This document shows, in pieces, positions 7,201-48,932 of a DNA stretch of 64,000 nucleotides (positions are counted from its first letter, which is position 1; the number at the start of each line of letters is the position of its first letter). The notes beneath the pieces are model-generated. The model was not told the origin of the DNA. It was given only the letters and a program-made list of their open reading frames with translations, and made no database searches. The position numbers and the translations under genes are program-made. Location of the stretch: contig CAWETU010000001.1 of NCBI GenBank assembly GCA_963812135.1, forward strand, positions 800,001 to 864,000, read 5' to 3'. Source of the stretch: Vulcanimicrobiota bacterium. GTDB lineage: Bacteria > Vulcanimicrobiota > Vulcanimicrobiia > Eremiobacterales > Eremiobacteraceae.

Positions 7201-7233
7201 GCCGACAGGATTGCGCGCGGGGCGCACCGGAAA

Positions 7234-8323: not shown

Positions 8324-8350
8324 TCCGGTCGAATAAATTTGACCGCTACA
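8320..8350. repeat. GTAG-type REP-like palindrome, family A
   Basis: GTAGTCCGGTCGAATAAATTTGACCGCTACA between convergent genes; its TAG is the cupin stop codon. Confidence 0.8.
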
Positions 8351-8351
8351 T

Positions 8352-13364: not shown

Positions 13365-13437
13365 TCCAGCCAAGGAAGCACCCTCCCGTGCACGAAGCCA
13401 GGCATAACCTGCTACGGAGTTCTTTCACCCGCCTGCC

Positions 13438-22223: not shown

Positions 22224-22236
22224 ATTCGGCCGCTAC
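22214..22236. repeat. Degenerate REP family A copy
   Basis: Minus strand GTAGCGGCCGAATTCAATCAACC; its TAG is the queD stop. Confidence 0.5.
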
Positions 22237-23269: not shown

Positions 23270-23401
23270 CAGACGGTTTTTTCGCGTTCTTCCCTGCGCA
23301 GCCTCTACAAGGGCGCGCCCGCACAGCGTCGAACTGCGCTCATCCTCAACTCGCGTCCGGACGGTCGACGATTTTCGATCGCAAATAGGGGGTGATATCA
23401 A

Positions 23402-30742: not shown

Positions 30743-32209
30743 GTGCTCCCCGTGGCCAGTAACCTCAAGATAGGGTTCTCATCAATCGTGCGCATCGAGG
30801 CGCCCACGACGATCGGCACGTTCGCGCATATCGCGTCCGCCATCGCGGATGCCGGTGGGCGCATCGGTGCGGTCGACGTGAGCCGTGTCGGCATGAAGCG
30901 TGCGATCCGCGACATCAGCATCGACGTCGCCGATGAGGACCACCTGCACAAGGTGGTCGACGCGATCTCGCGGATCGACGGCGTGCGCGTCATGCACCTC
31001 ACCGATCGCACGTTCCTCGCGCACCTCGGCGGCAAGATCGAGGTCAATCCGAAGATCCCCGTGACCAATCGCGAGATACTCTCGCGCGTCTACACGCCGG
31101 GCGTCGCGCGCGTGAGCCTCGCGCTCGCCGAAGATCCGTCGAAGGCATACAGCCTCACCGTCAAGCGCAATATGGTCGCGATCGTCTCGGACGGCACCGC
31201 GGTGCTCGGGTTGGGTGACGTCGGGCCGTACGCCGCCCTGCCGGTGATGGAAGGCAAGGCGATGCTGTTCAAGCAGTTCGCCGGCGTGGACGCTTTCCCG
31301 ATCTGCCTGTCGACCACCGACCCGGATGAGATCGTGAAGACAGTCATCAACATCTCGCCGGTGTTCGGCGGCATCAACCTCGAAGACATCTCGTCGCCGC
31401 GCTGCTTCGAGATCGAACGGCGCTTGAGCGAGGCGCTGGAGATGCCCGTCATGCACGACGATCAGCATGGCACGGCGATCGTGATCCTCGCGGCGCTGAT
31501 CAACGCGCTCAAAGTTGTGCACAAAAAGATCGAAGACGTGCGCATCGTCATCAACGGCATCGGCGCGGCCGGCTCCGCGTGCGCGAAGATCTTGATCTCC
31601 GCGGGCGCCGGCGACGTCATCGGCGTCGATCGCAACGGCGCGCTGGTCGCGGGCCGCGATTATTCCGGCAACGCGATGCAGCAATGGGTCGCAGAGCATA
31701 GCAACAAGCAACGCCGTTCCGGCCCGCTCAGCGAGGTGCTCAAAGGCGCCGACGTCTTCATCGGGCTGTCGATGCCGAACATCGTCAGCGTCGAGGATCT
31801 GCAGCGCATGGCGAAAGATCCGATCGTGTTCGCGATGGCCAATCCTTTGCCGGAGATCGCGCCCGATATCGCGGAGCCGTATGTCGCGGTCATGGGCACA
31901 GGCCGCTCCGACTATCCGAACCAGATCAACAATCTGCTCGCATTTCCCGGTGTGTTCCGCGGCGCGCTCGACGCGCGCGCGCGCTGCATCAACGAACCCA
32001 TGAAGCTTGCGGCGGCGCACGCGATCGCGTCGGTGATCGCGCCCGATGAACTTTCATCTGAATACATCATCCCAAGCGTGTTCGACACACGCGTCGTCGA
32101 AGCGGTGAGCAAAGCGGTGGTCAACGCCGCCTTCGACTCGGGCGTCGCGCGCAAGGCGCCGTCGGGCGAGGAGATCGAGGCGGAACAGCGCCCGCATGCG
32201 CATCTCTAA
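30743..32209 (+). CDS. NAD(P)-dependent malic enzyme with N-terminal ACT domain
   Basis: VYTPGVA, DGTAVLGLGD, PVMEGKAMLFK, INLEDI, HDDQHGTA, GRSDYPNQINN. Confidence 0.93.
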   Translation: MLPVASNLKIGFSSIVRIEAPTTIGTFAHIASAIADAGGRIGAVDVSRVGMKRAIRDISIDVADEDHLHKVVDAISRIDGVRVMHLTDRTFLAHLGGKIEVNPKIPVTNREILSRVYTPGVARVSLALAEDPSKAYSLTVKRNMVAIVSDGTAVLGLGDVGPYAALPVMEGKAMLFKQFAGVDAFPICLSTTDPDEIVKTVINISPVFGGINLEDISSPRCFEIERRLSEALEMPVMHDDQHGTAIVILAALINALKVVHKKIEDVRIVINGIGAAGSACAKILISAGAGDVIGVDRNGALVAGRDYSGNAMQQWVAEHSNKQRRSGPLSEVLKGADVFIGLSMPNIVSVEDLQRMAKDPIVFAMANPLPEIAPDIAEPYVAVMGTGRSDYPNQINNLLAFPGVFRGALDARARCINEPMKLAAAHAIASVIAPDELSSEYIIPSVFDTRVVEAVSKAVVNAAFDSGVARKAPSGEEIEAEQRPHAHL

Positions 32210-32239
32210 GAGGAAGAGCGCCGCCGGGGAGTAACCGAT

Positions 32240-33262
32240 ATGGCTATGAAAAGCGAGCCTCGCATCCGCGCGGCGTTGCCCGATGGGCTGACGCCGGACA
32301 AATTGCGCGAGATGTACTCGAAGATGGTGCTGACGCGGCTGTGCGACGATCGCGCGTTCGCGCTCAACCGCCAAGGCAAGATCCCGTTCGCCGCGACGTG
32401 CCAGGGCCACGAGGCGGTCCAGGTCGGCGCTGCGTATGCGCTGCGCCGCGGCACCGACTGGCTCGTTCCGTATTACCGTGACACGTGTCTGGCGCTCGCG
32501 TCGGGCGTCACCGCCAAAGAGCAACTCATGTGCCTGTTCGCCCGCAAAGCCGACATCTTCTCGAGCGGCCGCCAATTCCCGAACCACTACAGCGTGCCGG
32601 ATCGCAACATCGCGAGCATCTCGAGCATCATCGCCGCGCACGTGACGCACGGCGTCGGCATGGCGTTGGCGTTCCAGATGCGCAAAGAACCGGCGGTCGT
32701 GCTCATCACGTTCGGCGAAGGGTCGACGAGCGAAGGCGAGTGGCATGAGGCGCTCAACTTCGCGAGCGTGCATAAGGTGCCGTGCGTGTTCCTGTGCGAG
32801 AACAACGAATACGCGATTTCGGTGCCGCAGAAGATGCAGATGGCGATCCAAAACGTGGCGGACCGCGCCGCCGGCTACGGCATGCCGGGCGTGATCTGCG
32901 ACGGCACCGATCCGGTCGTCACGTATTCGTGCGTCCACGAGGCCATCGAACGCGCGCGGCGCGGCGACGGGCCGACGTTGGTCGAGGCCAAGTGCTATCG
33001 CGCCATGTCGCACACCTCCGACGACAACCAGCTCACATATCGCACGCCGGAAGAGATCGAAGCCGTCAAGGCGCGCGATCCAATCCCCAAGTTCGAGTCC
33101 TGGCTGAAGGATCGCGGGCTGGCTGACGACGCTTTCTTCGAACAGACGCGCGCAGCGGCGCAGAAAGAAGTCGACGAAGCCACGGATTGGGCCGAAGCGC
33201 AGCCGCCGCCCACTGAGGCCGATCTGTACACGCACGTCTACGCGTCGGGGCCGTTGTCCTGA
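32240..33262 (+). CDS. 2-oxoacid dehydrogenase E1 alpha (branched-chain type likely)
   Basis: QGHEA, PYYRD, TPP motif GEGSTSEG...ENNEYAIS, HTSDD. Confidence 0.9.
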   Translation: MAMKSEPRIRAALPDGLTPDKLREMYSKMVLTRLCDDRAFALNRQGKIPFAATCQGHEAVQVGAAYALRRGTDWLVPYYRDTCLALASGVTAKEQLMCLFARKADIFSSGRQFPNHYSVPDRNIASISSIIAAHVTHGVGMALAFQMRKEPAVVLITFGEGSTSEGEWHEALNFASVHKVPCVFLCENNEYAISVPQKMQMAIQNVADRAAGYGMPGVICDGTDPVVTYSCVHEAIERARRGDGPTLVEAKCYRAMSHTSDDNQLTYRTPEEIEAVKARDPIPKFESWLKDRGLADDAFFEQTRAAAQKEVDEATDWAEAQPPPTEADLYTHVYASGPLS

Positions 33263-34245
33263 TGCCGACCAAGACCGTGCTCGAAGGCGTCCGCGACGCC
33301 ATGTACAACGAGATGGTGCGCGACGAGCGCGTCTTCATCATGGGCGAAGACGTGGGCTCGCGAGGCAACGTCTTTCTCATCACGCAAGGCTTTCTCGACA
33401 AGTTCGGCCGCCAGCGCGTCATCGACACGCCGCTTGCCGAGGCGTCGATCGTCGGCGTCGCGATCGGCGCCGCGATGGCCGGCATGCGGCCCATCGCGGA
33501 GATCCAGTTCGCCGATTTTATCTATCCCGCGTACAACCAGATCGTCGGCGAAGCGGCGAAGATCCGCTATCGCAGCGCGGGCGGCAACACGTGTCCGCTC
33601 GTCATCCGCACGCCATACGGCGGCGGCGTGCGCGGCGCGCTCTCGCATTCGGTCAGCGTCGAGGCGCTGTTCTACCACGTGCCAGGTTTGAAGATCGTCG
33701 TGCCGTCGACGCCCGCGGACGCGCAGGGACTGCTTACCAGCGCCATCCGCGACGAAGATCCCGTGATGGTGTTAGAGCACAAGCGCACGTATCGCTTGAT
33801 CAAAGGCGAGGTTCCCGAAGGCGAATTCACGGTGCCCATCGGCAAAGCTGCGGTTGCCCGCGAAGGCAAGGACCTCTCGGTCATCACCTACGGGCTGATG
33901 CGGCACTTCGCGCTGGAGGCGGCCGAGAAGCTCGCCGCCGAGGGCATCGACGCGGAAATTGTGGACTTGCGTTCGATTCGGCCGATGGATAGAGAGACGA
34001 TTCTGGCGAGCGTCACCAAGACGCGGCGCGCGATGATCGTCCACGAAGACAACAAATTCGGCGGGGTGGGCGCGGAGATCGCCGCGATCATCGCCGAGGA
34101 AGCGCTCTTCGAGCTCGATGCGCCGGTCCGGCGCGTCGCAGGCCCGGACGTTCCGGCGATGGGCTACGCGAAAGAGTACGAGGAGGCGTTCATGCCCAGC
34201 CCGGATCGCATCGCGAAAGAGATGCGCGAGCTCGCCGCCTACTAG
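33262..34245 (+). CDS. 2-oxoacid dehydrogenase E1 beta
   Basis: GEDVG, DTPLAE, EIQFADF, HSVSVE, PGLKIV. Confidence 0.92.
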   Translation: MPTKTVLEGVRDAMYNEMVRDERVFIMGEDVGSRGNVFLITQGFLDKFGRQRVIDTPLAEASIVGVAIGAAMAGMRPIAEIQFADFIYPAYNQIVGEAAKIRYRSAGGNTCPLVIRTPYGGGVRGALSHSVSVEALFYHVPGLKIVVPSTPADAQGLLTSAIRDEDPVMVLEHKRTYRLIKGEVPEGEFTVPIGKAAVAREGKDLSVITYGLMRHFALEAAEKLAAEGIDAEIVDLRSIRPMDRETILASVTKTRRAMIVHEDNKFGGVGAEIAAIIAEEALFELDAPVRRVAGPDVPAMGYAKEYEEAFMPSPDRIAKEMRELAAY

Positions 34246-34273
34246 ATGACCGGGGACCGCGAGGGATAGCGTC

Positions 34274-35761
34274 GTGCCACAAGTGTTCATGCCGCAGCTC
34301 GGCGAGACGGTGACAGAAGGCACCGTCGGCCGTTGGCTCAAGAAACCTGGCGAACCGGTCGCCAAGTACGAGCCGCTGCTCGAAGTCGAGACGGACAAGG
34401 TCGCCTCGGAGATCCCGTCGCCGTTCGCCGGCACGTTGTCCGCGATTCTTGCCGAAGAAGGCACCACGGTGCCGGTCGGCGCGCCTGTGTGCGAGATCCT
34501 CGCCGCCGGCGAAGCGCCGAGCGCGACATCAGTTACCGCATCGGCGCCGCCAGAGCTCGAACCGTCGCCATCACCAGCGCAGGCACCGGTACCGCCGGCG
34601 GTTGCGAACGCGGCTGAAGAAAACATCGAGTCCGTCGCGCCCTCCGCCGCCGCCCCAGCCGATACAGCGGCCGCCGGCAACGGCGCGCGCCACTCGCCTG
34701 CGGTGCGCCGGCTCGCGCGGATGCATCACATCGATCTCTCCGGCGTCGCCGGCTCCGGGCGCGGCGGGCGCTTGACCGCGCGCGACGTGATCGCGCACGT
34801 CGAATCTGGAGCGGCGAAGACCGCGGCAAGCGTTGCGCCGCCAGCCGCGGCGAAACCACAACCGGCGCCGCAACCATCGGCGCCGCCGCAACCGCCGGCC
34901 CTAACGCCATCGCCGGTGACCGCTGTCGCAAAAACAGCACCGCCGTCGCTGGTCCCACCGCAAACCGCCGGAGCATCGCACGCGCCGGCGGCACCCGCCG
35001 CAACACCCGCTGCAGCCGGCACGCCGATCAAAGTGGCCGCCGCGTCGGTGCAGCCGTTGCCGATCGCGCCTCCAGGTCCGGACGATGTCGTCATCCGTCT
35101 GTCGCAGATGCGCAAGACGATCGCCGATCGGATGGTGTTGTCGAAGACGACGATTCCGCATGCATGGTCGATGGTCGAAGCCGACGTCACGAACCTCGTC
35201 AAATGGCGCACGAAAGAGAAGGACGCGTTCAAGGCCCGCGAGGGCGTGTCGCTGACATATCTGCCGATCGTCATCCAGGCCGTGTGTGCCGCGATCCGCG
35301 AGTACCCGATGGTCAACGCCACCTGGGCCGGCGACTCGATCATCCAACGGCGCCATATCAACGTCGGCGTCGCGGTGGACATCGAGGACGGGCTCATCGT
35401 GCCCGTCGTCAAAGACGCCGACCGCTACAGCATGGCCGGGCTTGCGACGACCATCAACGAGCTCGTCTCACGGGCCCGGTCACGCAAGCTGACGATGGAC
35501 GACCTTTCAGACGGCACCATCACCGTCGACAATACCGGAAGCCTGGGCAGCATCGCGTCGGTGCCGATCATCAATCCGCCGCAGGCCGCTATCATCACGA
35601 CTGAAGCCATTGTGCGGCGTCCGTGGGTGGTCGAGGACGCGATCGCCATCCGCCATATCATGAACCTTTGCTTGTGCCTAGACCACCGGGTGCTCGACGG
35701 TGCAGTGGCGTCCCATTTCCTGCAAGCGGTCAAAAAACGGCTCGAAACCTTCTCGGCCTGA
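34274..35761 (+). CDS. Dihydrolipoamide acyltransferase (E2)
   Basis: Lipoyl motif ETDKV, E3-binding SPAVRRLA, Ala/Pro linkers, catalytic DHRVLDG. Confidence 0.93.
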   Translation: MPQVFMPQLGETVTEGTVGRWLKKPGEPVAKYEPLLEVETDKVASEIPSPFAGTLSAILAEEGTTVPVGAPVCEILAAGEAPSATSVTASAPPELEPSPSPAQAPVPPAVANAAEENIESVAPSAAAPADTAAAGNGARHSPAVRRLARMHHIDLSGVAGSGRGGRLTARDVIAHVESGAAKTAASVAPPAAAKPQPAPQPSAPPQPPALTPSPVTAVAKTAPPSLVPPQTAGASHAPAAPAATPAAAGTPIKVAAASVQPLPIAPPGPDDVVIRLSQMRKTIADRMVLSKTTIPHAWSMVEADVTNLVKWRTKEKDAFKAREGVSLTYLPIVIQAVCAAIREYPMVNATWAGDSIIQRRHINVGVAVDIEDGLIVPVVKDADRYSMAGLATTINELVSRARSRKLTMDDLSDGTITVDNTGSLGSIASVPIINPPQAAIITTEAIVRRPWVVEDAIAIRHIMNLCLCLDHRVLDGAVASHFLQAVKKRLETFSA

Positions 35762-36824: not shown

Positions 36825-36856
36825 GAACGGCGCCCGAAAGGGCGCCGTTCTCTTTT
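36825..36856 (+). terminator. Intrinsic terminator
   Basis: GAACGGCGCCC-GAAA-GGGCGCCGTTC followed by TCTTTT, between convergent genes. Confidence 0.85.
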
Positions 36857-38138
36857 ACGTCAGCGCGCGGATGTCGGGCCGGCGCGCTGTGATGGCGACC
36901 GCCACGATCAACGCCACGCCGCCAAGCGCGAATGCGACCGGCAGCGAGGTGACGCTGGCGATGGATCCCAGCAGCCATGAGCCGAGCGGCATGAAGCCCA
37001 AGAATATCATCGTGTAGATCGACATGACGCGCCCGCGCATCGCGATCGGCGTGTGGGTCTGCAAGATCGTATTGGCCGTGCCGAGATAGAGCATTGCTGC
37101 GACGCCCAACGCGAGCAACACCGTCGCGGCGGACCACAACGTGTGCATGGCGCCGAGCAGCGCCAGCAAAGCGCCGGAGGCCGCGGCGCTGGCGATGAGC
37201 AGCCTGCCGCGTGGGGCGCGGCCGCCGATGAATGCGGTGGCGATCGAGCCCACGAGCGCGCCCGCGCCTGAGACCGCCAACAAGATGCCGAGCTCGCGCG
37301 CCCCTGCGCCCAGCTGGGCCTTTGAGAACGCGGGCAAGAGCTGGATGTAGGGGCGGCCGATGAGCGCTTGCAGCGCCGAGAGCACCACGACTGCGAAGAT
37401 CAGCGCGTTGGCGCGGACGTAGCGGAAGCCTTCGATCACGTCGCTCCAGATGTCCGTCTCGGGCAACGCGTTGAACGGGGGTTTGGGCTTCATGAGAAGC
37501 ACGGCGGCGTAGACCGCCATGTACGACGCCGCATTTATATAGAAGCAATCCGCAACGCCATACGCGTTGACGATGAGACCGCCGAGCGCCGGACCGATGA
37601 TCGCCGGCCCGTTGAAAGCGGCAGAATTGAGACCGATCGCGTTCATGAGCTCGCGCTTGCCGACGAGCACCGAGACCAGCGATTGGCGGGTCGGCGCCTC
37701 GAACGCGCTCGCCGCAGCTGACAGCGCGGCGATGAGCAGCACCTGCCACACCCGCACGACGCCGGTCTGCGCCAGAATGCCCAGCAGCAGGGTCAGGAGG
37801 CCGAGCAGCAGCTCGCAGACGGCGAGGATGCGCCGGCGGTCTCGCCGGTCCGCGAGTGCGCCGGCGACGCCGGACAACGCGAAGACCGGGATCGCGCGGG
37901 CGAAGCCGACCAGCCCGAGATACAACGATGCCAATGATGCGTTGGGGGCGAGTTGGACCACGAGCCAGCCCTGGGCCAGGATGGCCATCCAGCCGCCCGT
38001 GTTGGAGACGAGCAGGCCGAACCACAGGAGCCGGAACTCGCGGTAAGCGAGGGCGCCAAAGCGCGTGCGCGCGTGGGGGCTGGGCTGATCGTCGAGCGCT
38101 TCTTGCGACGCGGAGGCTTCTTCGAATGAGGAGGGCAC
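36855..38138 (-). CDS. MFS transporter (DHA3/MFS_3 exporter-like)
   Basis: ~12 TM; FRLLW, GALADRRDRRR motif A, GPALGG, MRGRVMS. Confidence 0.92.
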   Translation of the reverse strand: MPSSFEEASASQEALDDQPSPHARTRFGALAYREFRLLWFGLLVSNTGGWMAILAQGWLVVQLAPNASLASLYLGLVGFARAIPVFALSGVAGALADRRDRRRILAVCELLLGLLTLLLGILAQTGVVRVWQVLLIAALSAAASAFEAPTRQSLVSVLVGKRELMNAIGLNSAAFNGPAIIGPALGGLIVNAYGVADCFYINAASYMAVYAAVLLMKPKPPFNALPETDIWSDVIEGFRYVRANALIFAVVVLSALQALIGRPYIQLLPAFSKAQLGAGARELGILLAVSGAGALVGSIATAFIGGRAPRGRLLIASAAASGALLALLGAMHTLWSAATVLLALGVAAMLYLGTANTILQTHTPIAMRGRVMSIYTMIFLGFMPLGSWLLGSIASVTSLPVAFALGGVALIVAVAITARRPDIRALT

Positions 38139-38620: not shown

Positions 38621-39976
38621 TTACGCGAGCGATTCGCCGATTTTTTCAACGCCAAACGCCAATTGTTCGGTCGCGATGACGAGCGGCGGCGACAGCGAGA
38701 GCACGTTGTTGCCGGGCCCGCCGGCGAGCACCACGACGCCGCGACGCAGCGCCTCAGTGACCGTCTTCGACGCTCGCGCCTGATCCGGCGCGCCGTCGTC
38801 TCCCACAAGCTCGATCCCCCACATGAGTCCACAGCCGCGAACGTCGCCGATACAAGGACCCACCTTCTCCGCCAGGGCCTTCAACATTTCTCCTAACGCC
38901 GCACCGGTGGTGGCCGAGCGCGCAACGAGGCCGAGCCGCTCGATCTCGCTGATCGAGGCGAGCGCCGCCGCGCACGCCGTCGGATGACCGAGGAACGTGC
39001 TCGTGTGCACCGACTCGCCTTGCGATACCGGCCATGCGTCCATGACTTCCGCGCGTCCGATGCACGCCGAAATGGGGAAGCCCGAGGCCATGCCTTTGCC
39101 GACGCACAGCAGATCGGGCACGACGCCGGCGTGCTCGCACGCGAACCAGCGACCGGTGCGGCCGAATCCGGTGTACACCTCGTCGACGATGAGCAGCAGC
39201 TTACGGCGATCGCACAGCTCGCGCAGCTCGAGCAGCCAATCGAAGGGCGCGTCGACGTCGCCGCCGCGGCCTTGGATCGCCTCGACGATGACGGCGCCGA
39301 TGGTATCAGCGTCTTCTGAGTCCATCGCCTCCTCGACGAAGCTCAGGCATGCGTTCTCGCACGCCGGATGCGTAAGACTTAAGGGGCAGCGATAGCAGTA
39401 TGCATACGGCACGCGCGTCGCGAAATGCCCGAGTTGCTTGTCGAACGGCGCGCGGAAGAAATCGCGATCGGTGACCTCGAGCGCTCCGTAGGTCAGCCCG
39501 TGGTAGGCGCCGGTAAAGCACAGCACGCCCGGCTTGCCCGACGCGACCGCCGCGGTCTTGAGCGCCGACTCCACCGCTTCGGCGCCGGTCGAAGAGAAGA
39601 TGACGCGCTTGGCGCCCTCTCCCGGGGCCAACGCGCACAGTTTTTCTGCGAGCGCGACTTTGACTTCATTCGGATGCACGTCGCCGATGCCGTGCAACAG
39701 CAGCTCGGCTTGCTCCGCGACGGCTTTGACGACCGCCGGATTGCTATGGCCGGTCGCGGCGACGCCGAACGCGGCGGTGAGATCGACGTAGACGTTGCCG
39801 TCGACGTCCACCAGATTCGCACCGCTGCCGCGCTCGAAGAAGACGGGAAAGCGATCGCTCGCAAAAGTGATGTTCGGGCTCTCGACGTCGCGCAGCCGGC
39901 GCATCAACTCGCGGCTGCGAGGTCCGGGCGGATCGACGACGATGCGGCCGAGCTCGTTGCCGAGCGATGTGCTCAT
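38621..39976 (-). CDS. Class III PLP-dependent aminotransferase
   Basis: DVDGNVYVD, TGAEAVE, AYHG, DEVYTGFGRTG, PDLLCVGKGM, STFLGHP. Confidence 0.93.
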   Translation of the reverse strand: MSTSLGNELGRIVVDPPGPRSRELMRRLRDVESPNITFASDRFPVFFERGSGANLVDVDGNVYVDLTAAFGVAATGHSNPAVVKAVAEQAELLLHGIGDVHPNEVKVALAEKLCALAPGEGAKRVIFSSTGAEAVESALKTAAVASGKPGVLCFTGAYHGLTYGALEVTDRDFFRAPFDKQLGHFATRVPYAYCYRCPLSLTHPACENACLSFVEEAMDSEDADTIGAVIVEAIQGRGGDVDAPFDWLLELRELCDRRKLLLIVDEVYTGFGRTGRWFACEHAGVVPDLLCVGKGMASGFPISACIGRAEVMDAWPVSQGESVHTSTFLGHPTACAAALASISEIERLGLVARSATTGAALGEMLKALAEKVGPCIGDVRGCGLMWGIELVGDDGAPDQARASKTVTEALRRGVVVLAGGPGNNVLSLSPPLVIATEQLAFGVEKIGESLA

Positions 39977-41151
39977 GCGGCTTGGAAATCGCGCGGCGTG
40001 GGGCGATAGCCGAACGGCGGGCGCTGCATTTCGCCGAGCTCGCAGAGCCGGCGCGCGCCGGCCAGCGCGAACGCCGAGCGGTCGCGTTCGGGGGTGTTCA
40101 GCGCGAATCCGATCGTCTCGACCGGCCGCCCGAAATGCTTGAGCTGCGTCACGACATCCCGCGCGCTGGGCGCGTGCTTGACGATCACGATGCGCCCAAA
40201 GCCGGCACACGTCGGCTGCCCGAACGGCTCGAGCGCGACCACGAATTCGGGCACATTCTGGCGCAGCAGGCCCTTCACGAGCGTGTCGAGCCCATGCGGC
40301 AGCGGCGCTACAGCGGTCAGCCCCAAACGACGGACGAAATCGGCGACCTGCGCGCCCTCGTCTGGTGCGAAGGCGGCGCGTGGCAGCTGACCGGCTTTGG
40401 AGCGGATCTCGCCGGCCAGCGCGCGCGTGAACAGGAGCGCTTTTCCATTGTCGCCTGCCACGTAGATGGTCTGGGGCGACATGCAGCCACGCTGATCGAA
40501 CAAGCACACATCCGAGGCAGCTGCGGCGGCAGCCTTACCGACCTCCGCATCGGCGTGGAGGTAGCCGATGCTGTATGACTCGCCATACCCCGTCACGCGG
40601 ACGTGCGATGCGCGATCACGGACCTGCTCGATCGTCGCGTCCTCGCCGAAGACGATCAGATTGTCGATGCTTGAAAGCGCGGCCGACTCCGCGTCCAGAT
40701 CTCCGCCGCGCCAATAGCGCGCCTCGACCAGGCCGCGCAGCGGAGCGCCCGATTCGTCGAATTGGCGGCTGACGATCTGCGCGAGGTGCTGCTCCGCGCT
40801 CGCAGCTTTAAGAATGGTCGGGGTCTCGGCTATGGCCGCGCAAAACGCGGCGTGGATCGCCGGCCCGATTATATTGCCGGGGAGAATCACCACCGTCCGA
40901 GCACCCGCTCGGACGGGCACCCGAGCGTTCGCTCGGGTACTACATTCTTCTATGAGCGCCAGAGCGCGAGGCTCGTCCAGATCCCACAGCGCGTTGTCGA
41001 GCGCCGCTTCGACCACCTCGGCGGGCCAGATCCCGCCCGCGAGCGCTTCACGCGCCCGTGCGCGGACCGTCGACGCGCGATCGCGCCACTGCGCCGCTGC
41101 GCTCGCGATCGCATGCGCGCGGGTGACGCCGGCGGCGATCTCGGTTTTCAT
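39973..41151 (-). CDS. LuxC-like acyl-CoA/acyl-protein reductase
   Basis: ILPGN, LKAAS, VFGEDATI, catalytic-Cys motif FDQRGCMSPQ, RLCELGEMQRPP. Confidence 0.82.
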   Translation of the reverse strand: MKTEIAAGVTRAHAIASAAAQWRDRASTVRARAREALAGGIWPAEVVEAALDNALWDLDEPRALALIEECSTRANARVPVRAGARTVVILPGNIIGPAIHAAFCAAIAETPTILKAASAEQHLAQIVSRQFDESGAPLRGLVEARYWRGGDLDAESAALSSIDNLIVFGEDATIEQVRDRASHVRVTGYGESYSIGYLHADAEVGKAAAAAASDVCLFDQRGCMSPQTIYVAGDNGKALLFTRALAGEIRSKAGQLPRAAFAPDEGAQVADFVRRLGLTAVAPLPHGLDTLVKGLLRQNVPEFVVALEPFGQPTCAGFGRIVIVKHAPSARDVVTQLKHFGRPVETIGFALNTPERDRSAFALAGARRLCELGEMQRPPFGYRPTPRDFQAA

Positions 41152-42257
41152 GACAGTGCCGCATCGATGGCGATGCTGCAGCCTCTCGGCGGCTCGCCTG
41201 GCGCGCGTCCGAACAGCTCGAAGCCGCCGTCGACGTGACGCGCAAGATCGCCGGTCAGCACGGACGCGACAGAGCCGCGGTTGCTCAGGTCGAAGATCTG
41301 CAAGAGCCCGATATCCCCGTCAGGCAAGGGCGCGGCGGTCACGCGATCGACGACAAGCGTCTTGGCCCAGTGCGGCCCGACTTTGAGATGCGTGCGCGGT
41401 GCGTGGCCGCTGGAAAAGTCGCCGAGGTTGGCATCGTACCACTGGCTGCCCAGCTCGCACATGCCGTATTCGGAGACGCAGAGCTCGCGCGGCACGCCGA
41501 GCAGCGCGGAAAACCAGCCATAAAGCTCGTCGCGGTCAACCTCGCGCGATTTGCCCTTGAAACCGCCTGTCTCGACCACTCGACTGCCCGGCGGCAGCGA
41601 GAAGCGCTCGCCTGTGTCGGAACAGCGATCGAAGAGATGGACGAACGCGAAGGCGGTGCCGATGACCAGCACCGGGCTCTCGGCCGTTCGCAGCGCGCGA
41701 GCAGCGCCGGCGAAATCGATCGACGCTCCGTCGTGGAAGAAGCCGTCGCGGGGCGTGCCGAAGACGTCGCTGATCTTTGAGATCATGTACGAGAGCGAAG
41801 AGTTCGGCGCGAGCGAAAACGGCGGCGCAAGCGCCACGACTTGCATCGGGGCGGCGTCGAGCAGCACGCGCTGGCGGAAATGGGTCAAGAGAGACGAGTC
41901 GTACAGTTTCGTGTTCTCGAGCTCGAGTCGCGAGCGGCTCGCATGGGTCGTGCCGCTCGACAAGAATGCGATGCGCGCACGCTCCGGAGGAAAGCACGCC
42001 AATCTGACCTGCGAGAACGCCGCGGTCGGCACGGCCGGCACGTCCTGCCAACGGTACACCGACAACGGAGTGCTGCCTACGCGATCGCAATAGCGCCGGT
42101 ATGGCTCGTTGGCGGCGTACTGATACGCGAACAAGTCGACCGCAAGCCGGCCGAATGCCGCCGCGTCACCGTCCTCGCGCGCGATGAAACGGCCGATGCG
42201 CTCGTCAAGCTCGCCGGCGGATGGCGCGGTGCTGCGAAGCGCCCCTGAAGGTTGCAC
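41148..42257 (-). CDS. LuxE-like acyl-protein synthetase
   Basis: FAYQY, FLSSGTT, ETGGFKG, SEYGMCELGSQ, TGDL, C-terminal GR...RGCS acylation Cys; start uncertain (GTG 42257). Confidence 0.85.
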   Translation of the reverse strand: MQPSGALRSTAPSAGELDERIGRFIAREDGDAAAFGRLAVDLFAYQYAANEPYRRYCDRVGSTPLSVYRWQDVPAVPTAAFSQVRLACFPPERARIAFLSSGTTHASRSRLELENTKLYDSSLLTHFRQRVLLDAAPMQVVALAPPFSLAPNSSLSYMISKISDVFGTPRDGFFHDGASIDFAGAARALRTAESPVLVIGTAFAFVHLFDRCSDTGERFSLPPGSRVVETGGFKGKSREVDRDELYGWFSALLGVPRELCVSEYGMCELGSQWYDANLGDFSSGHAPRTHLKVGPHWAKTLVVDRVTAAPLPDGDIGLLQIFDLSNRGSVASVLTGDLARHVDGGFELFGRAPGEPPRGCSIAIDAALS

Positions 42258-42315
42258 GATGCATGCATTTTTTGACAGGACAACGCGCTTCTCATCCGAA
42301 GCCGGACGACCCACC

Positions 42316-42714
42316 ATGCGGCAGCTCGAGATCGGCTTGACGTCGAGCAATGATTACGTGGCAACCCCCGAGCGGCTTGCAGACCGCTACGGCAATCCGG
42401 GCGTGCCGGTGCTTGCGACGCCGCACCTCGTGCACCTCGCCGAAGCCGAATGCGTGCGCTGCGTCCAGCCGTATCTGCGCGAGGGCGAATCCACCGTCGG
42501 CGTACGCCTCGACGTCCGACACGTGGCGGCGACTCCGGCGGGCATGCGCTTCACGATGCACGCGAAGCTCGCCGAGATCGATCGGCGCCGGCTGGTCTTC
42601 GAGGTCGAGGCGCGCGATGAGCACGGCGTGTGTTTCGCGGGCAGTCACGAACGTTTCGTCATCGAAACGGCGCCGTTTCTCGCGAAGGCGTTGGAGCGGG
42701 GGAAACGGACGTGA
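42316..42714 (+). CDS. FlK-type (fluoroacetyl-CoA thioesterase-like) hotdog thioesterase
   Basis: VLATP...E...TVG...H..ATP (Thr/Glu/His triad pattern), GSHER. Confidence 0.85.
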   Translation: MRQLEIGLTSSNDYVATPERLADRYGNPGVPVLATPHLVHLAEAECVRCVQPYLREGESTVGVRLDVRHVAATPAGMRFTMHAKLAEIDRRRLVFEVEARDEHGVCFAGSHERFVIETAPFLAKALERGKRT

Positions 42715-42718
42715 CGCG

Positions 42719-43354
42719 GTGATCGTCGAGACCATCCCGGTTGGTGCGCTCATGTGCAACTGCGTCATTCTCGGGGACGAGCGCACGAAAGAGGCCATCG
42801 TCATCGACCCCGGCGATGACATCGATCAGATCAGCGCGGTGCTCGACAAACACGGCTTGCGCCTGCGGGCGATCGTCGCCACGCACGGCCATATCGACCA
42901 TGTCGGCGGCATCGCCAAGCTCAAGGCGCTGACCGGAGCCCCGGCGATGCTGCACGAAGCAGACCTTCCCATGTACCAGAATCTCGCCGAACAAGCGCGC
43001 TGGCTCGGCGTGCCGGCGCCGCCGACGACGGACATCGATAAGCATCTAAGCGATGCGCAGTCGCTCGAATTCGGCAGCCAAAAACTCGAAGTGCGGCATA
43101 CGCCCGGCCATTCGCCCGGCAGTGTCTCGTTCGTGCTGCCGCATGACGTGCCCGTGATCTTTGCCGGCGATACGCTATTCGCGGGCAGCATCGGACGAAC
43201 AGACCTGTGGGGTGGTTCGCTGGACCAGATCCTCAGGTCGATCCGCGGCACGCTGCTGCGCATGCCCGATGAGTCGATCGTGCTCCCCGGCCACGGGCCG
43301 CGCACGACGATCGGCATCGAGCGCGCGACTAACCCGTTTCTCGTGGAGAAGTGA
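42719..43354 (+). CDS. MBL-fold metallo-hydrolase (glyoxalase II/YcbL-like)
   Basis: THGHIDH, HTPGHSPGS, GDTLF, GRTDL, PGHG. Confidence 0.92.
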   Translation: MIVETIPVGALMCNCVILGDERTKEAIVIDPGDDIDQISAVLDKHGLRLRAIVATHGHIDHVGGIAKLKALTGAPAMLHEADLPMYQNLAEQARWLGVPAPPTTDIDKHLSDAQSLEFGSQKLEVRHTPGHSPGSVSFVLPHDVPVIFAGDTLFAGSIGRTDLWGGSLDQILRSIRGTLLRMPDESIVLPGHGPRTTIGIERATNPFLVEK

Positions 43355-43764
43355 TGTCAGAGAAGATAGGCAACGTCATACCGCCGCCCTTGCGATTCGA
43401 GATGGGAGCAGCCGAGCCCGCGAACGAGCCGGTTCGCGCGTTCTTGCTCGTCACCATCGATCAAGACCATCAACCACGCGTCGCGGTCCTCGCGCCCACC
43501 GAGGTGAACGCGCTCGACGAGCGGCGCTTGACTGTGAAAGTGCATTCCAAGAGCACGACGCAGAAGAACCTGCGGCGCAGCTTCAGCGCCTTGCTCTGGT
43601 GCGTGTTGGACGGGGCCGCCTATTCGATACGCGGCGGCGCCAAGCTGCACAAAGAACAAGATGAGTACGCGACCTTTGAGATGAGCGTCACCGAAGTGCT
43701 GCGCGACTTCTATGCCGACGCGCCGATGATCTCAGGCCCGACGTTCAAACGGATCCAGAAATAA
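43354..43764 (+). CDS. Pyridoxamine 5'-phosphate oxidase-like (split-barrel FMN-binding) protein
   Basis: LLVTIDQDHQPRVA...STTQKNL pattern; coupled to the previous gene. Confidence 0.6.
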   Translation: MSEKIGNVIPPPLRFEMGAAEPANEPVRAFLLVTIDQDHQPRVAVLAPTEVNALDERRLTVKVHSKSTTQKNLRRSFSALLWCVLDGAAYSIRGGAKLHKEQDEYATFEMSVTEVLRDFYADAPMISGPTFKRIQK

Positions 43765-44359: not shown

Positions 44360-44767
44360 CTAGTTAAGCTTGGCGAACGCGTCCGCCGCCGTGCCGGCCT
44401 TTGACCCCTTGCGGTAGTTCTCGATCGTGATGCGCAGCGCCTCAAGAACGCGTTCCGGGTAGTCTTTCTTGCGCTCTGGGTATCCGCCGAGAAAGGCCTC
44501 GATCTGGTCCGGGGTGATGGCCGCCGCCTCGTCCACGGTCTTGCCCTTGGCGAGCTCGGTCAGGATGGCGCAAGTCGCGATCCCGAAGCCGCAACCGGTC
44601 GTGAAATAGGAGATGTCCTCGATGCGCTCGCTGCCGTCGACCTTAAGATAGATCGTATACATATCGCCGCACGAATCGGAGAAATACTCGCCCGTCGCGG
44701 TCGGGTCGGCCATTTGCGCGAACCCCGTGCGATTGGTCACGAGCTCTTGGAACTTCGGGAAATCCAT
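44360..44767 (-). CDS. NifU/IscU-like scaffold paralogue
   Basis: SCGD, GCG, ELAKGKTVDEA; the usual C-terminal HC is absent. Confidence 0.8.
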   Translation of the reverse strand: MDFPKFQELVTNRTGFAQMADPTATGEYFSDSCGDMYTIYLKVDGSERIEDISYFTTGCGFGIATCAILTELAKGKTVDEAAAITPDQIEAFLGGYPERKKDYPERVLEALRITIENYRKGSKAGTAADAFAKLN

Positions 44768-45408
44768 TATTTGCCTCCGGCGTGTGCGGGAATCGCGAAT
44801 TCGCAGATGTCGTCGCCACGGGCGATCGACTGTCGCTGTTCGGCTTTGGCCGGCAACACCTCTTCCATGAGGGCGTGCACGACCGAGCAGACTTCTGGGT
44901 GGGTGGCCACGGTGTCGCGGAAAGGGCAGTTGTGCTCGCGTAGCACGAAGCCGTCGGCGCTGACCTCGTAGTCCGCCACCACGCCTTGCTCGCGCAGGAT
45001 CGTCGTCAATTCGGCGACCCGCTCTTGCGGCGTCTTGCCGGCGAAGCGCGCGGCGTACTTGCGCGCCGAGCGCTGTCCGATGTTGTGGAACAGCTCTTTG
45101 ACCTTGTCGCCGCCTTGCGACGCGGAGATCTCTTCGATCACAGCATTGAGCAATGTGCTGTAGCGCTGCGGGAAGAGCCGCCGGCCCTCGGCCGTCAGTG
45201 AGAAGACCAGGCTGGGTTTGGTCGGCCCGCGCCGCTCGGAAGTCTCGGCCACCAGCCCGTCGCGCTCCAAGCGCGCCAAATGCTGGCGGATGGCGTTTTG
45301 GGTCAGCTCATGCCCGGCCGCCAGCTCGGCGGCGGTCTGTGGGCCGCGCCGTTGAAGTGACTCGACGATGCGTCCGCGGGTCGTTTGGAAAAAGCGTGCT
45401 TCTCGCAT
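44767..45408 (-). CDS. SufR-like winged-HTH transcriptional regulator
   Basis: AIRQHLARLERDGLV HTH, FPQRY, C-terminal HNCPF...C...C Fe-S ligand pattern; divergent from the suf operon. Confidence 0.82.
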   Translation of the reverse strand: MREARFFQTTRGRIVESLQRRGPQTAAELAAGHELTQNAIRQHLARLERDGLVAETSERRGPTKPSLVFSLTAEGRRLFPQRYSTLLNAVIEEISASQGGDKVKELFHNIGQRSARKYAARFAGKTPQERVAELTTILREQGVVADYEVSADGFVLREHNCPFRDTVATHPEVCSVVHALMEEVLPAKAEQRQSIARGDDICEFAIPAHAGGK

Positions 45409-45435
45409 AGTGTTGCCAGGTTTCCCGGCCCCTTA

Positions 45436-45478
45436 AGTATAAGGCACTATTGCAAGAATTTCAACATTTATCTATACT
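45436..45478. promoter_or_regulatory. Overlapping divergent sigma70 promoters for the regulator and sufC
   Basis: Plus strand TTGCAA(45450)-N17-TATACT(45473); minus strand TTGAAA(45464)-N17-TATACT(45441). Confidence 0.75.
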
Positions 45479-45499
45479 ATCTAGGCCGGACCACCCGGT

Positions 45500-45523
45500 C
45501 GGTCGGTTAGAATCGACCGCTAC
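45500..45523. repeat. Degenerate REP family A copy in the sufC leader
   Basis: Minus strand GTAGCGGTCGATTCTAACCGACCG. Confidence 0.6.
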
Positions 45524-45543
45524 GAGCACCCTGAAAGGACCCC

Positions 45544-46305
45544 ATGGCTGACGTTATCCTTGAAGTCCGGGACCTGCACGTCAAGGTCGGCGACAATGAG
45601 ATCATCCGCGGCATCGACCTGAAGATCGAGCGCGGCACCGTGCACGCCCTCATGGGACCGAACGGCTCCGGCAAGAGTACGCTCTCGCTGGTGCTCATGG
45701 GGCATCCGAAGTACGCAGTGACGAGCGGTGACATCCTGTACCAGGGCCGCAGTATCCTCGAGATGCCGACGAACGAGCGCTCGCTGGCGGGCATGTTCCT
45801 CGCGTTCCAGTACCCGTCATCGGTGCCCGGCGTGAGCGTCGCCAATTTCATGCGCAACACGCTGATGGCGCGGCACAAGGGCGATGCGCCCTTGACGCCG
45901 GCGAAGTTTAAGGCGCTGCTCGACAACGCGGCGGCGAAACTCAAGGTGGATCCGAAGGTGCTGGGCCGCTACGTCAACGACGGTTTTTCCGGCGGCGAGA
46001 AAAAGCGCCTCGAAATGCTCCAGATGCTCGTGCTCCAACCCACGCTCGCGATCTTGGACGAAACCGACTCGGGGCTGGACATCGATGCGCTGCGCATCAT
46101 CGCCGAAGGCATCGAAGCTCAGCGCTCGCCCGAGCACTCGATTCTGCTCATCACGCATTACCAGCGCATCCTCAACTACGTGAAGCCGGACAAAGTACAC
46201 GTGCTCGTCAAGGGACGCATCGTCAAAGAAGGCGGACCGGAGCTCGCGCAAGAGCTCGAGCGCACCGGGTACGACCCCATCATCAAAGAATTGGCAACGG
46301 TGTAA
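45544..46305 (+). CDS. sufC: Fe-S assembly ATPase SufC
   Basis: [44 protein letters not shown]. Confidence 0.97.
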
Positions 46306-46306
46306 T

Positions 46307-47719
46307 ATGGCGCTCAAAGAGCAGCAGCTCGTCGACAAAGACTATAAGTACGGGTTCAGCGATCAGACCGAGAGCTACTCGTTCAAGTCGCGCAAGGGCA
46401 TCGATCACGACATCGTCGAGCAGATCTCGCAGATGAAGAAAGAGCCGCAGTGGATGCGCGATTTCCGCCACCGCGCGCTCGACATCTTCCTCGCCAAGCC
46501 GATGCCGGCGTGGGCGCACAACGAAGTCCTCGAGGCGATTGACTTTGACGACATCTACTATTATATGCGCGCGTCCGACCAAGAGGGCAAAACGTGGGAA
46601 GACGTGCCCGAGGACATCAAGCGCACGTTCGATCGGCTCGGCATCCCTGAGGCCGAGCGCAAGTTCCTGGGCGGCGTCACCGCGCAGTACGATTCCGAAG
46701 TGGTCTACCATAGCATCCGCAAGGATCTCGAGGCCAAGGGCGTGCTGTTCTCCGACATGGACACCGGCCTGCGCGAGCACGAGGACATCGTGCGCGAGCA
46801 TTTCGCGACCATCATCCCGCCCGGCGACAACAAGTTCTCCGCGCTCAACTCGGCGGTCTGGTCGGGCGGTTCGTTCATCTGGGTCCCGCCGGGAGTCCGC
46901 GTGGATATCCCGCTGCAGGCCTACTTCCGCATCAACTCTGAGAACATGGGTCAGTTCGAGCGCACGCTGATCATCGCCGAGCCCGGTTCGTTCGTGCACT
47001 ATATCGAAGGGTGCACGGCGCCGACGTTTTCGAGCAACTCGCTGCACTCGGCCGTCGTCGAGCTGATCGCCAAGGAAGGCGCGCACATCCGCTACACGAC
47101 GATCCAGAACTGGTACAAGACGGTCTACAACCTCGTGACCAAGCGCGCGATGGCGCACAAGAACGCGCACGTCGAGTGGGTCGATGGCAACATCGGGTCC
47201 AAGCTCACGATGAAGTATCCTTCAGTCTACCTCATGGGTGAGGGCGCGCGCGGCGAAGTGCTTTCCATCGCGTACGCGAGCGAAGGCCAGCATCAAGACG
47301 CCGGTGCGAAGATGATCCATGCTGCGCCGAACACGACCTCGATCATCACGAGCAAGTCGGTGAGCAAGAACGGCGGACGTACGAGCTATCGCGGTCTCAT
47401 CAAGGTGTACGAAGGCTGCGACGGCGTCAAGTCCAACGTGCGCTGCGACGCATTGCTGATGGATCCCGAATCGCGCTCGGACACGTACCCGACGATCGAA
47501 GTCGACGCCAAGGACGTACGCGTCGAGCACGAAGCGACCGTCTCCAAGGTCGGCGAAGAACAGCTGTTCTACGTCATGAGCCGCGGCCTCACCGAAGTCG
47601 AAGCGACGACGATGATCGTCAACGGCTTCTTCGAGCCCTTCGTCAAGGAACTTCCCATGGAATACGCGGTCGAGCTCAACCGGCTCATCGCGCTCGAGAT
47701 GGAAGGCTCCGTTGGCTAA
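46307..47719 (+). CDS. sufB: Fe-S assembly protein SufB
   Basis: [52 protein letters not shown]. Confidence 0.97.
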
Positions 47720-48932
47720 GACGGAGTCCTCTGTAGCGGTCGAATTAATTCGACCGTCTCTTAGCCTCGACTCGATCAACGCATCATCCACCACCGAGCC
47801 GTCGTGGCTGCGCGAGATCCGCGCTGGCGCGTTCGGACGTTACGAAGCGATTCCGGCGCCGACCGAGCGCACTGAAGGGTGGCGCAGGCTCTCGCTCAAG
47901 GGCATCGACCTCACGCCGCCGGCGCAGGAGAGCTCTCCATTCAAAGTGACTGTCGCGAGCGTTGATCGCGCGCGTGGCGTGATCGCCAAGACGCTCGCCG
48001 ACGCGCTGGTCTCGCATGCGGAGCTCGTCAAAGAGGCGCTGGTCCAGGCACGCGGCGGCCGCACCGTCGGCAAGTATTCAGCCCTGGCCGAAGCGGCCTG
48101 GCTCGGCGGCGCATTCGTGTACGTCCCCGACGGCGTCGAGCTGAGCGGTCCGATTCTCGTCGAGGCGCAAAGCGGTACCTATCCTCGATTGGTCGTGATT
48201 CTCGGCAAGCAGGCGCGCGCATCGATCGCGGAAACGCACCGCGAGCGGGGGCCGTTCAGCGCGGGCATCACCGACCTCATCGTCGGCGCTGACTCGCGTC
48301 TGACCTACGCGCACGTGCAGGAGTGCGGGCCTGAGACGATCGTCTTCTCGCATCAACACGCGCGCGTCTCCAGCGGCGCGAAACTCGTGACGCTGAATCT
48401 CGGATCCGGCGGCACCCTCTCTAAGAGCGACATCGAAGTCGAACTCCTCGGCAGAGGCGCCGAGAGCGACATGCTCGGTCTGGTGTTCGGCCGGGGAACG
48501 CAGCAGTTCGACTATCATACGCTCCAAGGCCACCGCGCCACCGACACGCACAGCGATCTCCTCTTCAAGAGCGCGCTCGACGGACACGCGCATTCGCTGT
48601 ATACCGGCGTCATCGTCATCGAAAAGGGCGCGCAGCGCAGCGATGCGTATCAGGCGAACCGCAACTTGCTGCTCGCCGAAGGCGCCCGCGCCGACACCGA
48701 GCCGAAACTGGAGATCGAAGCCGACGACGTGCGCTGCACGCACGGCGCAACCGTCGGTCCGATCGACGCAGAGCAATTGTTTTACCTGGCGAGCCGCGGG
48801 CTCGACCGCGACACCGCCGCACGCCTGATCGTCGAAGGCTTCTTCCAAGACGTGCTCGACAAGGTCGGCGACGAGCGCCTCACGCGCCCGCTTGAGACAA
48901 AGTTCGCGCCGCACCTCGAGCACGAGGGCTAG
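47712..48932 (+). CDS. sufD: Fe-S assembly protein SufD
   Basis: TTG start overlapping the sufB stop; [36 protein letters not shown]. Confidence 0.93.
47732..47756. repeat. REP family A copy inside the sufD coding sequence
   Basis: TGTAGCGGTCGAATTAATTCGACCG, read in frame as VAVELIRP. Confidence 0.82.

Follow-up and report, generated by a model that had tools for sequence, protein, structure and literature searches.

The 64,000-nucleotide stretch of DNA analysed here (the window) comes from the genome of a Vulcanimicrobiota bacterium (assembly GCA_963812135.1; G000 below), which is 2.79 Mb long, has a G+C content of 64% and is 98.4% complete, the window being G000:C1:800001-864000. It carries three minus-strand genes that encode a LuxE-like adenylating acyl-protein synthetase, a LuxC-like thioester reductase and a class-III (fold type I) pyridoxal 5'-phosphate (PLP) aminotransferase (Table 1). 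The stop codon of the luxE-like gene overlaps the start codon of the luxC-like gene in an ATGA at 41148-41151, the luxC-like stop codon overlaps the aminotransferase start in the same manner at 39973-39976, and the three overlapping genes form one unit. This arrangement was described in the original prediction, made from the sequence and its open reading frames (ORFs), and its coordinates and both overlaps were verified. The family assignments given there were confirmed by hidden Markov model searches, in which the LuxE-like protein matches PF04443 with 50.8 bits (cut-off 24.9), the LuxC-like protein PF05893 with 110.6 bits (cut-off 21) and the aminotransferase PF00202 (Aminotran_3) with an E-value of 2e-103. 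Which start codon the luxE-like gene uses is uncertain, its reading frame being open over 41148-42350, up to a TTG at 42350; a GTG in the same frame at 42257 gives a protein whose length matches that of its relatives. LuxE and LuxC are each encoded once in the genome, according to a genome-wide profile search.

The window holds no luxA, luxB or luxD, as had been stated before, and this extends to the whole genome. LuxD (PF02273) has no match in the 2.79 Mb, and the only PF00296 match, located 1.13 Mb away, is a luciferase-like monooxygenase of the Atu2307/SP_0267 type (517 bits, cut-off 462) that scores 59 bits with the model for luciferase alpha, whose cut-off is 600, leaving the genome without a detected luxA or luxB.

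Table 1. Genes of the window discussed in the text, with the three-gene unit first (positions are those of the window).
Gene product	Position	Strand	Family match and remarks
LuxE-like adenylating acyl-protein synthetase	41148-42257	minus	PF04443; 369 aa from GTG 42257
LuxC-like thioester reductase	39973-41151	minus	PF05893; 392 aa
Class-III (fold type I) PLP aminotransferase	38621-39976	minus	PF00202; 451 aa; YHGL / QGRGG signature
QueE-like radical S-adenosylmethionine (SAM) enzyme (7-carboxy-7-deazaguanine synthase)	22583-23575	minus	match 22586-23251; real start probably well inside the ORF
QueD-like 6-carboxytetrahydropterin synthase (PTPS family)	22233-22655	minus	PF01242, 93 bits (cut-off 22.4)
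FlK-type hot-dog thioesterase	42316-42714	plus	PF22636, E 9e-32; ATG 42316, 58 bp from GTG 42257
MFS_3 (EntS-like) transporter	36855-38138	minus	PF05977, E 2e-64; 482 bp downstream of the aminotransferase
GloB-like hydrolase of the metallo-beta-lactamase (MBL) fold	42719-43354	plus	PF00753, E 3e-32; TIGR03413 GloB, 96 bits (cut-off 201)
PNPOx-like protein	43351-43764	plus	PF01243, E 2e-5, under the cut-off

Relation to the luminous fatty acid reductase

The sole PDB matches of the LuxE-like and LuxC-like proteins are the LuxE chain (7xc6_E) and the LuxC chain (7xc6_A) of the Photobacterium phosphoreum LuxC-LuxE structure 7XC6. The motifs on which the original prediction had relied are all present, namely SSGTT, ETGGFKG and the C-terminal RGC of the LuxE-like protein and FDQRGC of the LuxC-like protein. 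The cysteine of the latter motif, Cys223, is invariant in 39 aligned relatives, and the motif aligns with YDQQAC of LuxC in 7XC6. A profile of 47 LuxE-like sequences matches 7xc6_E with an E-value of 1.2e-32 and places the cysteine of its (R/K)GC(S/A) motif on LuxE Cys364 (PRGCS in the window protein, QKGCS in 7xc6_E); this C-terminal cysteine is invariant in 64 of 64 aligned sequences, including that of the window. In luminous bacteria, the acyl group is brought into LuxC on the C-terminal cysteine of LuxE and is accepted there by a LuxC cysteine before NADPH reduces it (PMC12041015). Since both the acyl-carrying and the catalytic cysteine are conserved and aligned with those of 7XC6, the mechanism is probably kept in the window proteins, and an ATP-dependent thioester, a cysteine-to-cysteine transfer and a reduction by NAD(P)H to the aldehyde would be expected of them.

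The two systems thus share both protein families, the adenylation motifs, LuxE Cys364 and the LuxC catalytic cysteine, as well as adjacent and translationally coupled genes. They differ in the size of the reductase, of which the window version has 392 residues against the 477 of the LuxC chain, its match beginning at chain residue 109 and its N-terminus being about 85 residues shorter, and in the surroundings of the genes, the window unit being coupled to an aminotransferase and lacking luxA/B and luxD. The LuxE-like protein scores 46.3 bits against the NCBIfam LuxE equivalog NF052244 (cut-off 550) and the LuxC-like protein 58.4 bits against the LuxC equivalog NF052251 (cut-off 750), and neither of the two, judged by its sequence, is an orthologue of its luminous counterpart.

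The aminotransferase and its active site

The aminotransferase stays under every NCBIfam equivalog cut-off, its best models giving 384 bits against a cut-off of 552, 327 against 507 and 279 against 410. Alignment with Escherichia coli GabT places Lys294, invariant in 43 relatives, on the Schiff-base Lys268, and replaces GabT Arg141 by Leu161, Glu211 by Arg237 and Arg398 by a serine, Leu161 and Arg237 being invariant in the same 43 sequences. In GabT, Arg141 binds the carboxylate of a gamma-aminobutyric acid (GABA) analogue, and Arg398 is the arginine conserved in fold-type-I aminotransferases (PMC9309667). A substrate that lacks a distal carboxylate would agree with the loss of both carboxylate-binding arginines.

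Ten class-III aminotransferase genes are present in the genome, that of the unit and nine paralogues, some of which exceed curated cut-offs: GabT (549 bits, cut-off 507), an AcOAT-family enzyme (581, cut-off 552), PatA (690, cut-off 612) and HemL. The PatA and GabT genes adjoin at G000:C1:91293-93877, outside the window. In a FastTree phylogeny of 145 sequences, the enzymes with the YHGL/QGRGG signature form a 'group A' (127 rows, support 99) that is separate from the GabT, AcOAT-like and PatA paralogues of the genome and also from a 'group B' (FHGD / QGEGG, Arg398 kept, 10 rows), whose members are the partners of LuxC in Nitrospirota, Binatia and Armatimonadota. With no equivalog reached, Arg141 and Arg398 replaced and a clade of its own, the enzyme is not an ordinary GabT or ArgD, in line with the role given to it in the original prediction.

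A semialdehyde pathway of the arginine or lysine type was considered and set aside, as were GABA, beta-alanine and ornithine as products, given the absence of the carboxylate-binding arginines and the existence of separate GabT, AcOAT-like and PatA enzymes in the genome. A diamine (polyamine) product was considered as well. ArgB/ArgC/ArgD and LysZ/LysY/LysJ share with the unit the conversion of an acid to an aldehyde and an amine, with a class-III aminotransferase acting last, but they activate the acid with a kinase as an acyl phosphate, reduce it with a semialdehyde dehydrogenase and handle substrates with a carboxylate that is bound by an arginine lost in the window enzyme.

Co-conservation of the three genes

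Each species was represented by one genome in a scan with an alignment of LuxC-like proteins. It gave 79 loci, whose neighbouring genes were counted with profiles. Among the 21 closest loci (L002-L022), the aminotransferase lies beside LuxC in 19, the two misses being contig ends, and LuxE in all 21. This recurrence of the arrangement among close relatives makes a chance adjacency very improbable. The sister families f2 and f3 of the same class have the aminotransferase beside LuxC at 14 of 14 loci and LuxE at 10 of 14; in the largest sister genus, where LuxE is not next to LuxC, PF04443 located LuxE elsewhere in three of five genomes. Farther away, at 58 loci of other phyla, the aminotransferase is found within 5 kb of LuxC in 40 cases (30 of the 39 loci with at least 4 kb of sequence on both sides) and LuxE beside LuxC in 46; these loci span Polyangiaceae and other Myxococcota, Binatia, Nitrospirota, Armatimonadota, Verrucomicrobiota and others. 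Co-conservation of the aminotransferase with the luxEC homologues, on which the original prediction depended, is supported by these counts.

The gene order is LuxE-LuxC-aminotransferase in Eremiobacterota and aminotransferase-LuxE-LuxC in Polyangiaceae. As two aminotransferase subgroups are used, the pairing of LuxC with an aminotransferase is functional and not inherited synteny. At six loci from other classes of the phylum (L098-L103), LuxE and LuxC are fused in every case into a protein of about 890 residues (range about 885-1060; LuxC profile E-values 1e-75 to 1e-100), and none of the six has an aminotransferase beside it. QueC was found in some of the genomes with such a fusion.

Linkage of the aminotransferase to queE

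Queuosine is a widespread modification of the tRNA wobble position. Its precursor 7-aminomethyl-7-deazaguanine (preQ1) is inserted into tRNA by the bacterial Tgt, and 7-carboxy-7-deazaguanine (CDG), an earlier intermediate, is the product of QueE. The de novo pathway, with FolE, QueD, QueE, QueC, QueF, Tgt, QueA and QueG/H, is treated as complete (PMC11130926).

Scanning metagenome contigs with the alignment of group-A aminotransferases gave 80 loci. Many group-A relatives at these loci have no LuxC or LuxE beside them, and a small radical SAM gene, whose best models are all QueE, lies directly upstream of group-A members. The order queE-AT-luxE-luxC (AT, aminotransferase gene) on one strand is found at eight loci (L122, L124, L126, L128, L129, L130, L132 and L134), and queE directly upstream of the aminotransferase, with no more, at a further 29-30, bringing the loci with queE to about 38; LuxE/LuxC only are present at nine, and neither at 33-34, many of which are short contigs. 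QueE passes the NCBI TIGR04349 cut-off in five of the six four-gene loci scanned (306.7-311.1 bits, cut-off 300). The genes of L124 are contiguous (QueE 6054-6701, aminotransferase 6965-8203, LuxE 8181-9299, LuxC 9296-10597), and L130 carries a LuxE::LuxC fusion. Two loci of Armatimonadota (Fervidibacter), L038 and L065, show the order QueE-like, HAD, LuxC and group-B aminotransferase.

As a separate observation, two Acido-Lenti-1 RNAs (46 and 44 bits, gathering score 37) were found just downstream of the queE-linked aminotransferase of L170, at 8384-8429 (minus strand) and 8546-8591 (plus strand).

Queuosine genes in the genome and in its relatives

The window itself contains adjacent queD-like and queE-like genes. 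All best NCBIfam hits of the QueE-like protein are QueE models (TIGR04349 with 114 bits, TIGR03365 with 104 bits), and the QueD-like protein reaches 70.6 bits against TIGR03367 QueD (cut-off 89). Elsewhere in the genome, Tgt (499 bits) and QueA are present. There are three QueA matches (G000:C1:1552439-1553450 and 1318821-1319801), of which two are adjacent pieces in different frames (profile 2-124 and 124-322), which suggests a frameshifted or split copy, and the third is a second, full-length copy. QueF has no match in the 98.4% complete genome, and the best QueC match, with 23.5 bits, is MnmA (PF03054, 212 bits). With QueD, QueE, Tgt and QueA present and QueC and QueF not found, CDG would be made and preQ1 used, with no gene detected for either of the known steps between them.

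The same gap recurs in related genomes (Table 2). The survey covered 301 genomes of the phylum; families f1, f2 and f3 make up the class of the window genome, with 231 genomes besides it. As the raw QueC count (288 of 301) is inflated by cross-hits to MnmA, which account for the common matches of 27-35 bits (checked on G097), strong matches alone (E <= 1e-20) were counted. The class totals are 228 of 231 genomes for QueE, 223 for the LuxC family, none for QueF and four for strong QueC, and in a separate draw Tgt was found in 147 of 150 genomes of the class. G273, with the only full-strength QueC of the class (217 bits), is one of the seven f2 genomes without a LuxC match. Families f12 and f13, which belong to other classes, show the standard pathway. 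The LuxC numbers are those of the Pfam profile, since with the window protein as query f2 was undercounted (61 of 207 at E <= 1e-10, against 200 of 207). Genomes flagged as unpublished (G128, G212, G232, G237, G245, G247, G263 and G319) are included in the tallies, and no claim hangs on one of them.

Table 2. Occurrence of QueE, the LuxC family, QueF and QueC in families of the phylum.
Family	QueE	LuxC family	QueF	QueC
f1	21/21	20/21	0/21	strong: 1 (G165)
f2	204/207	200/207	0/207	strong: 3 (G063, G118, G273)
f3	3/3	3/3	0/3	no strong match
f12 (other class)	5/5	1/5	4/5	5/5
f13 (other class)	6/6	0/6	1/6	6/6

A further sample consisted of 16 genomes from other phyla in which LuxC-aminotransferase loci occur, among them the Labilithrix luteola and Minicystis rosea chromosomes and that of a Candidatus Manganitrophus. 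Tgt is present in 15 of these and QueE in 13. Only one of the 16 has a QueF match and two have a QueC match, of which one is partial and the other weak and split; neither Labilithrix luteola nor Minicystis rosea has a QueC or QueF match.

A candidate nitrile-free route to preQ1

CDG is a carboxylic acid, and the reduction and transamination of its carboxyl group would yield preQ1. The sequence R-COOH to R-CHO to R-CH2NH2, with R being 7-deazaguanin-7-yl, gives preQ1, and in this respect the chemistry fits exactly. We consider it likely that the three genes encode a route from CDG over 7-formyl-7-deazaguanine to preQ1 that is independent of QueC and QueF and passes through no nitrile. The individual steps are proposed from the mechanisms of the families and from the genomic context. 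The QueE-like enzyme would supply CDG. The LuxE-like enzyme would adenylate its carboxylate with ATP and load it as a thioester onto its own C-terminal cysteine, from which the acyl group would move to Cys223 of the LuxC-like enzyme and be reduced with NAD(P)H to 7-formyl-7-deazaguanine. The class-III aminotransferase would then convert the aldehyde to the aminomethyl group of preQ1. The conversion of an acid to an aldehyde and an amine, already named in the original prediction, stands as the best chemical reading, but the fatty acid or amino-lipid substrate suggested there is not supported, the genomic context pointing to CDG as the acid and preQ1 as the amine.

Compared with the route of QueC (preQ0 synthase) and QueF (preQ0 nitrile reductase), the proposed one would start from CDG, end at preQ1 and stand between QueE and Tgt in the same way, and both activate a carboxylate with ATP and reduce with NAD(P)H. 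The families are unrelated, however; the triad would form neither amide nor nitrile, and it would take its nitrogen from an amino donor via PLP, whereas the standard route takes it from ammonia. The expected cost would be a single ATP and a single NAD(P)H, against two of each. Compared with luminous LuxC-LuxE, the main difference proposed is the substrate, a heteroaromatic acid in place of myristic acid.

The proposal puts known enzyme families and reaction types in a new pathway role. No publication joining queuosine with LuxC/LuxE or an acyl-protein synthetase was found in a search of a collection without most subscription journals, and none on Eremiobacterota together with LuxC. Publications that name LuxC/LuxE along with aminotransferases dealt with unrelated subjects, a luxCDABE reporter in one case and flagellin glycosylation islands with a DegT/VioA-type aminotransferase in the other. 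In the literature searched, 7-formyl-7-deazaguanine is named by one paper only (PMC13740343), where it is a product of hydrolysis with QueF variants.

Neighbouring genes

The FlK-type thioesterase is divergent from the unit, and the distance of about 60 bp to the luxE start given in the original prediction was measured as 58 bp from GTG 42257. The LuxD role suggested for it was rejected, as FlK is limited to three (L002-L004) of the 21 close-relative loci; elsewhere an MBL gene abuts luxE, and the thioesterase is probably outside the unit. The transporter of the major facilitator superfamily (MFS) is, as described earlier, a downstream gene on the same strand, but the export of the product proposed for it was not sustained, the gene being conserved in close relatives only and separated by a gap (Table 1). 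Of the 21 loci L002-L022, 15 have it downstream of the aminotransferase. Neither the 14 f2/f3 loci (L084-L097) nor the loci of other phyla (L023-L080) yielded it, and the weak MFS_3 matches seen, with 25-30% identity, are confined to L098-L100, which belong to other classes. The MBL and PNPOx-like genes are present in 19 and 15 of the same 21 loci and neither in other phyla. The MFS, MBL and PNPOx-like genes are uncertain as parts of the unit, being conserved only among close relatives, with no link to it found.

Housekeeping genes flank these neighbours on either side in the window: 30743-35761 encodes a malic enzyme with an ACT domain and the E1 alpha, E1 beta and E2 subunits of a 2-oxoacid dehydrogenase, and 44360-48932 a NifU-like protein, an ArsR-type regulator and SufC/SufB/SufD. 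Among the distant loci, the aminotransferase-LuxE-LuxC genes of Labilithrix and Minicystis come immediately after a gene for an FHA-GGDEF diguanylate cyclase (L077:4978-5883 and L080:6165-7184, respectively), and in Minicystis a gene of the PTPS/QueD family (13359-13721) lies about 3 kb downstream of the unit. In Candidatus Manganitrophus, a fluoride riboswitch (61.8 bits; L028:7669-7736, minus strand) lies upstream of the LuxE-LuxC-aminotransferase unit, at a distance of about 0.8 kb and on the opposite strand from it.

Evidence against the preQ1 route and alternative explanations

Several observations weigh against CDG as the substrate. To our knowledge, all characterised LuxE and LuxC enzymes act on fatty acyl groups. 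The QueE and QueD of the window are both under their NCBIfam cut-offs, the triad lies about 16 kb from queD-queE and shares no operon with them in the window, and the equal spacing found in G071, G087 and G128 may be plain synteny. No preQ1 riboswitch was detected at Rfam gathering scores in the window and 14 loci, where the fluoride riboswitch of L028 and the Acido-Lenti-1 RNAs of L170 were the sole matches. LuxE is not adjacent to LuxC and the aminotransferase at four of the 14 sister-family loci, and PF04443 did not find it in two of the five sister genomes mentioned above (G097 and G024). QueC-like genes of 81-101 bits occur alongside LuxC in G165, G063 and G118, and G307 has a QueF match. 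Since f13 has QueC in all six genomes but QueF in one, the absence of QueF is weak on its own, and related genomes are not independent samples. Group-A aminotransferases also occur without a queuosine link, beside GNAT (L142) or PTS EIIA genes (L136, L140 and L144), and the LuxCE-linked label changes at least nine times on the aminotransferase tree. At L152:4608-10856 and L154:6884-12820, a group-A aminotransferase is accompanied by genes for an NAD-dependent epimerase/thioester-reductase-like protein, a serine-palmitoyltransferase-like protein (550 bits, cut-off 640) and PAP2, a cluster that may be an amino-lipid or sphingolipid-type pathway using the same kind of aminotransferase. Finally, a route to preQ1 gives no account of why MFS_3, MBL and PNPOx-like genes are conserved next to the unit.

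Two alternatives deserve to be weighed against the preQ1 route, both of them improbable. According to the first, which is that of the original prediction, a fatty, other aliphatic or aromatic acid would be converted over the aldehyde to a primary amine, as an amino-lipid or a small-molecule precursor that is possibly exported by the MFS transporter. An aminotransferase without carboxylate-binding arginines would suit a hydrophobic aldehyde equally well, the transporter gene often follows the operon in close relatives, and relatives of the aminotransferase stand beside the serine-palmitoyltransferase-like gene in L152 and L154. LuxE and LuxC of luminous bacteria reduce myristic acid (PMC12041015), and the nearest described logic is that of tambjamine BE-18591, for which TabE, a reductase reported to be in the same sequence cluster as LuxC, and the transaminase TabA make dodecylamine (bioRxiv 10.1101/2025.08.11.669332). 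TabE/TabA of Streptomyces, like TamA/TamH of Pseudoalteromonas, lead from a thioester over an aldehyde to a transaminated primary amine, but TabE uses acyl-acyl carrier protein (acyl-ACP) or acyl-CoA and does not depend on an activator of the LuxE type; a C12 fatty acyl group serves as substrate, and the genes belong to a secondary-metabolite cluster. At none of the annotated loci, seven distant ones included, do lipid, ACP, polyketide synthase or nonribosomal peptide synthetase genes stand beside the unit, the thioesterase is rare even among close relatives, and the transporter is missing from the f2/f3 and other-phylum triad loci. Above all, a fatty amine as product would leave unexplained both the repeated queE-AT-luxE-luxC operons and the non-detection of QueC and QueF in lineages that keep QueE and Tgt.

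The second alternative, doubtful as well, is that an intermediate of the 7-deazapurine or pterin kind is the target of the unit, but with another end product or direction, such as 7-formyl-7-deazaguanine or an amine derived from it as the precursor of another 7-deazaguanine product (for DNA modification or a secondary metabolite), 6-carboxytetrahydropterin as the acid, or a recycling of preQ1-like compounds. The queE linkage shows no more than a relation to the substrate or product of QueE, a few genomes combine QueC-like genes with the triad, and G035 has QueC in addition to a QueE that adjoins the fused LuxE-LuxC of L102, with no aminotransferase nearby, which speaks against the preQ1 route too. 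Against this stand the retention of Tgt and QueA, so that preQ1 is needed and has no other encoded source, the fact that reduction and transamination of CDG yield preQ1 and nothing else, and the lack of dpdA-type or other tailoring genes beside the annotated units.

An adjacency without pathway meaning, with an ordinary GabT/ArgD-type aminotransferase behind a LuxEC-type reductase of other purpose, could draw on the best NCBIfam matches of the aminotransferase, which are acetylornithine and GABA aminotransferase models, and on its nearest solved structure, mycobacterial GabT (4ffc), but is very improbable and, judging from the comparison of loci, fails on the conservation data, as no equivalog cut-off is reached, GabT Arg141 and Arg398 are replaced, nine further class-III paralogues include GabT, AcOAT-family, PatA and HemL enzymes over cut-offs, start and stop codons of the triad genes overlap, and the pairing recurs in at least five phyla with two aminotransferase subgroups.

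Implications

With slightly less confidence than for the unit itself, we also expect that an entire class within Eremiobacterota, together with Polyangiaceae and lineages from several further phyla, makes preQ1 without QueC and QueF, by means of a LuxE/LuxC-type carboxylate reductase and a dedicated class-III aminotransferase, with 7-formyl-7-deazaguanine as the intermediate. If this reading is true, a pathway regarded as solved would have a second, nitrile-free de novo branch, and a hole in lineages with QueD, QueE and Tgt would be filled by the non-orthologous replacement of two steps. The annotations 'LuxC/LuxE' and 'GabT-like' would be misleading about the function of these genes, and 7-formyl-7-deazaguanine, which is known so far only because QueF variants yield it on the side (PMC13740343), would become a natural metabolite. 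Biocatalysis would gain a natural heteroaromatic carboxylate reductase together with a matching transaminase. Genomes now scored as salvage-dependent or queuosine-deficient would be those of prototrophs, and genome-based predictions of which organisms make queuosine precursors and which scavenge them, in soils and other communities, would change.

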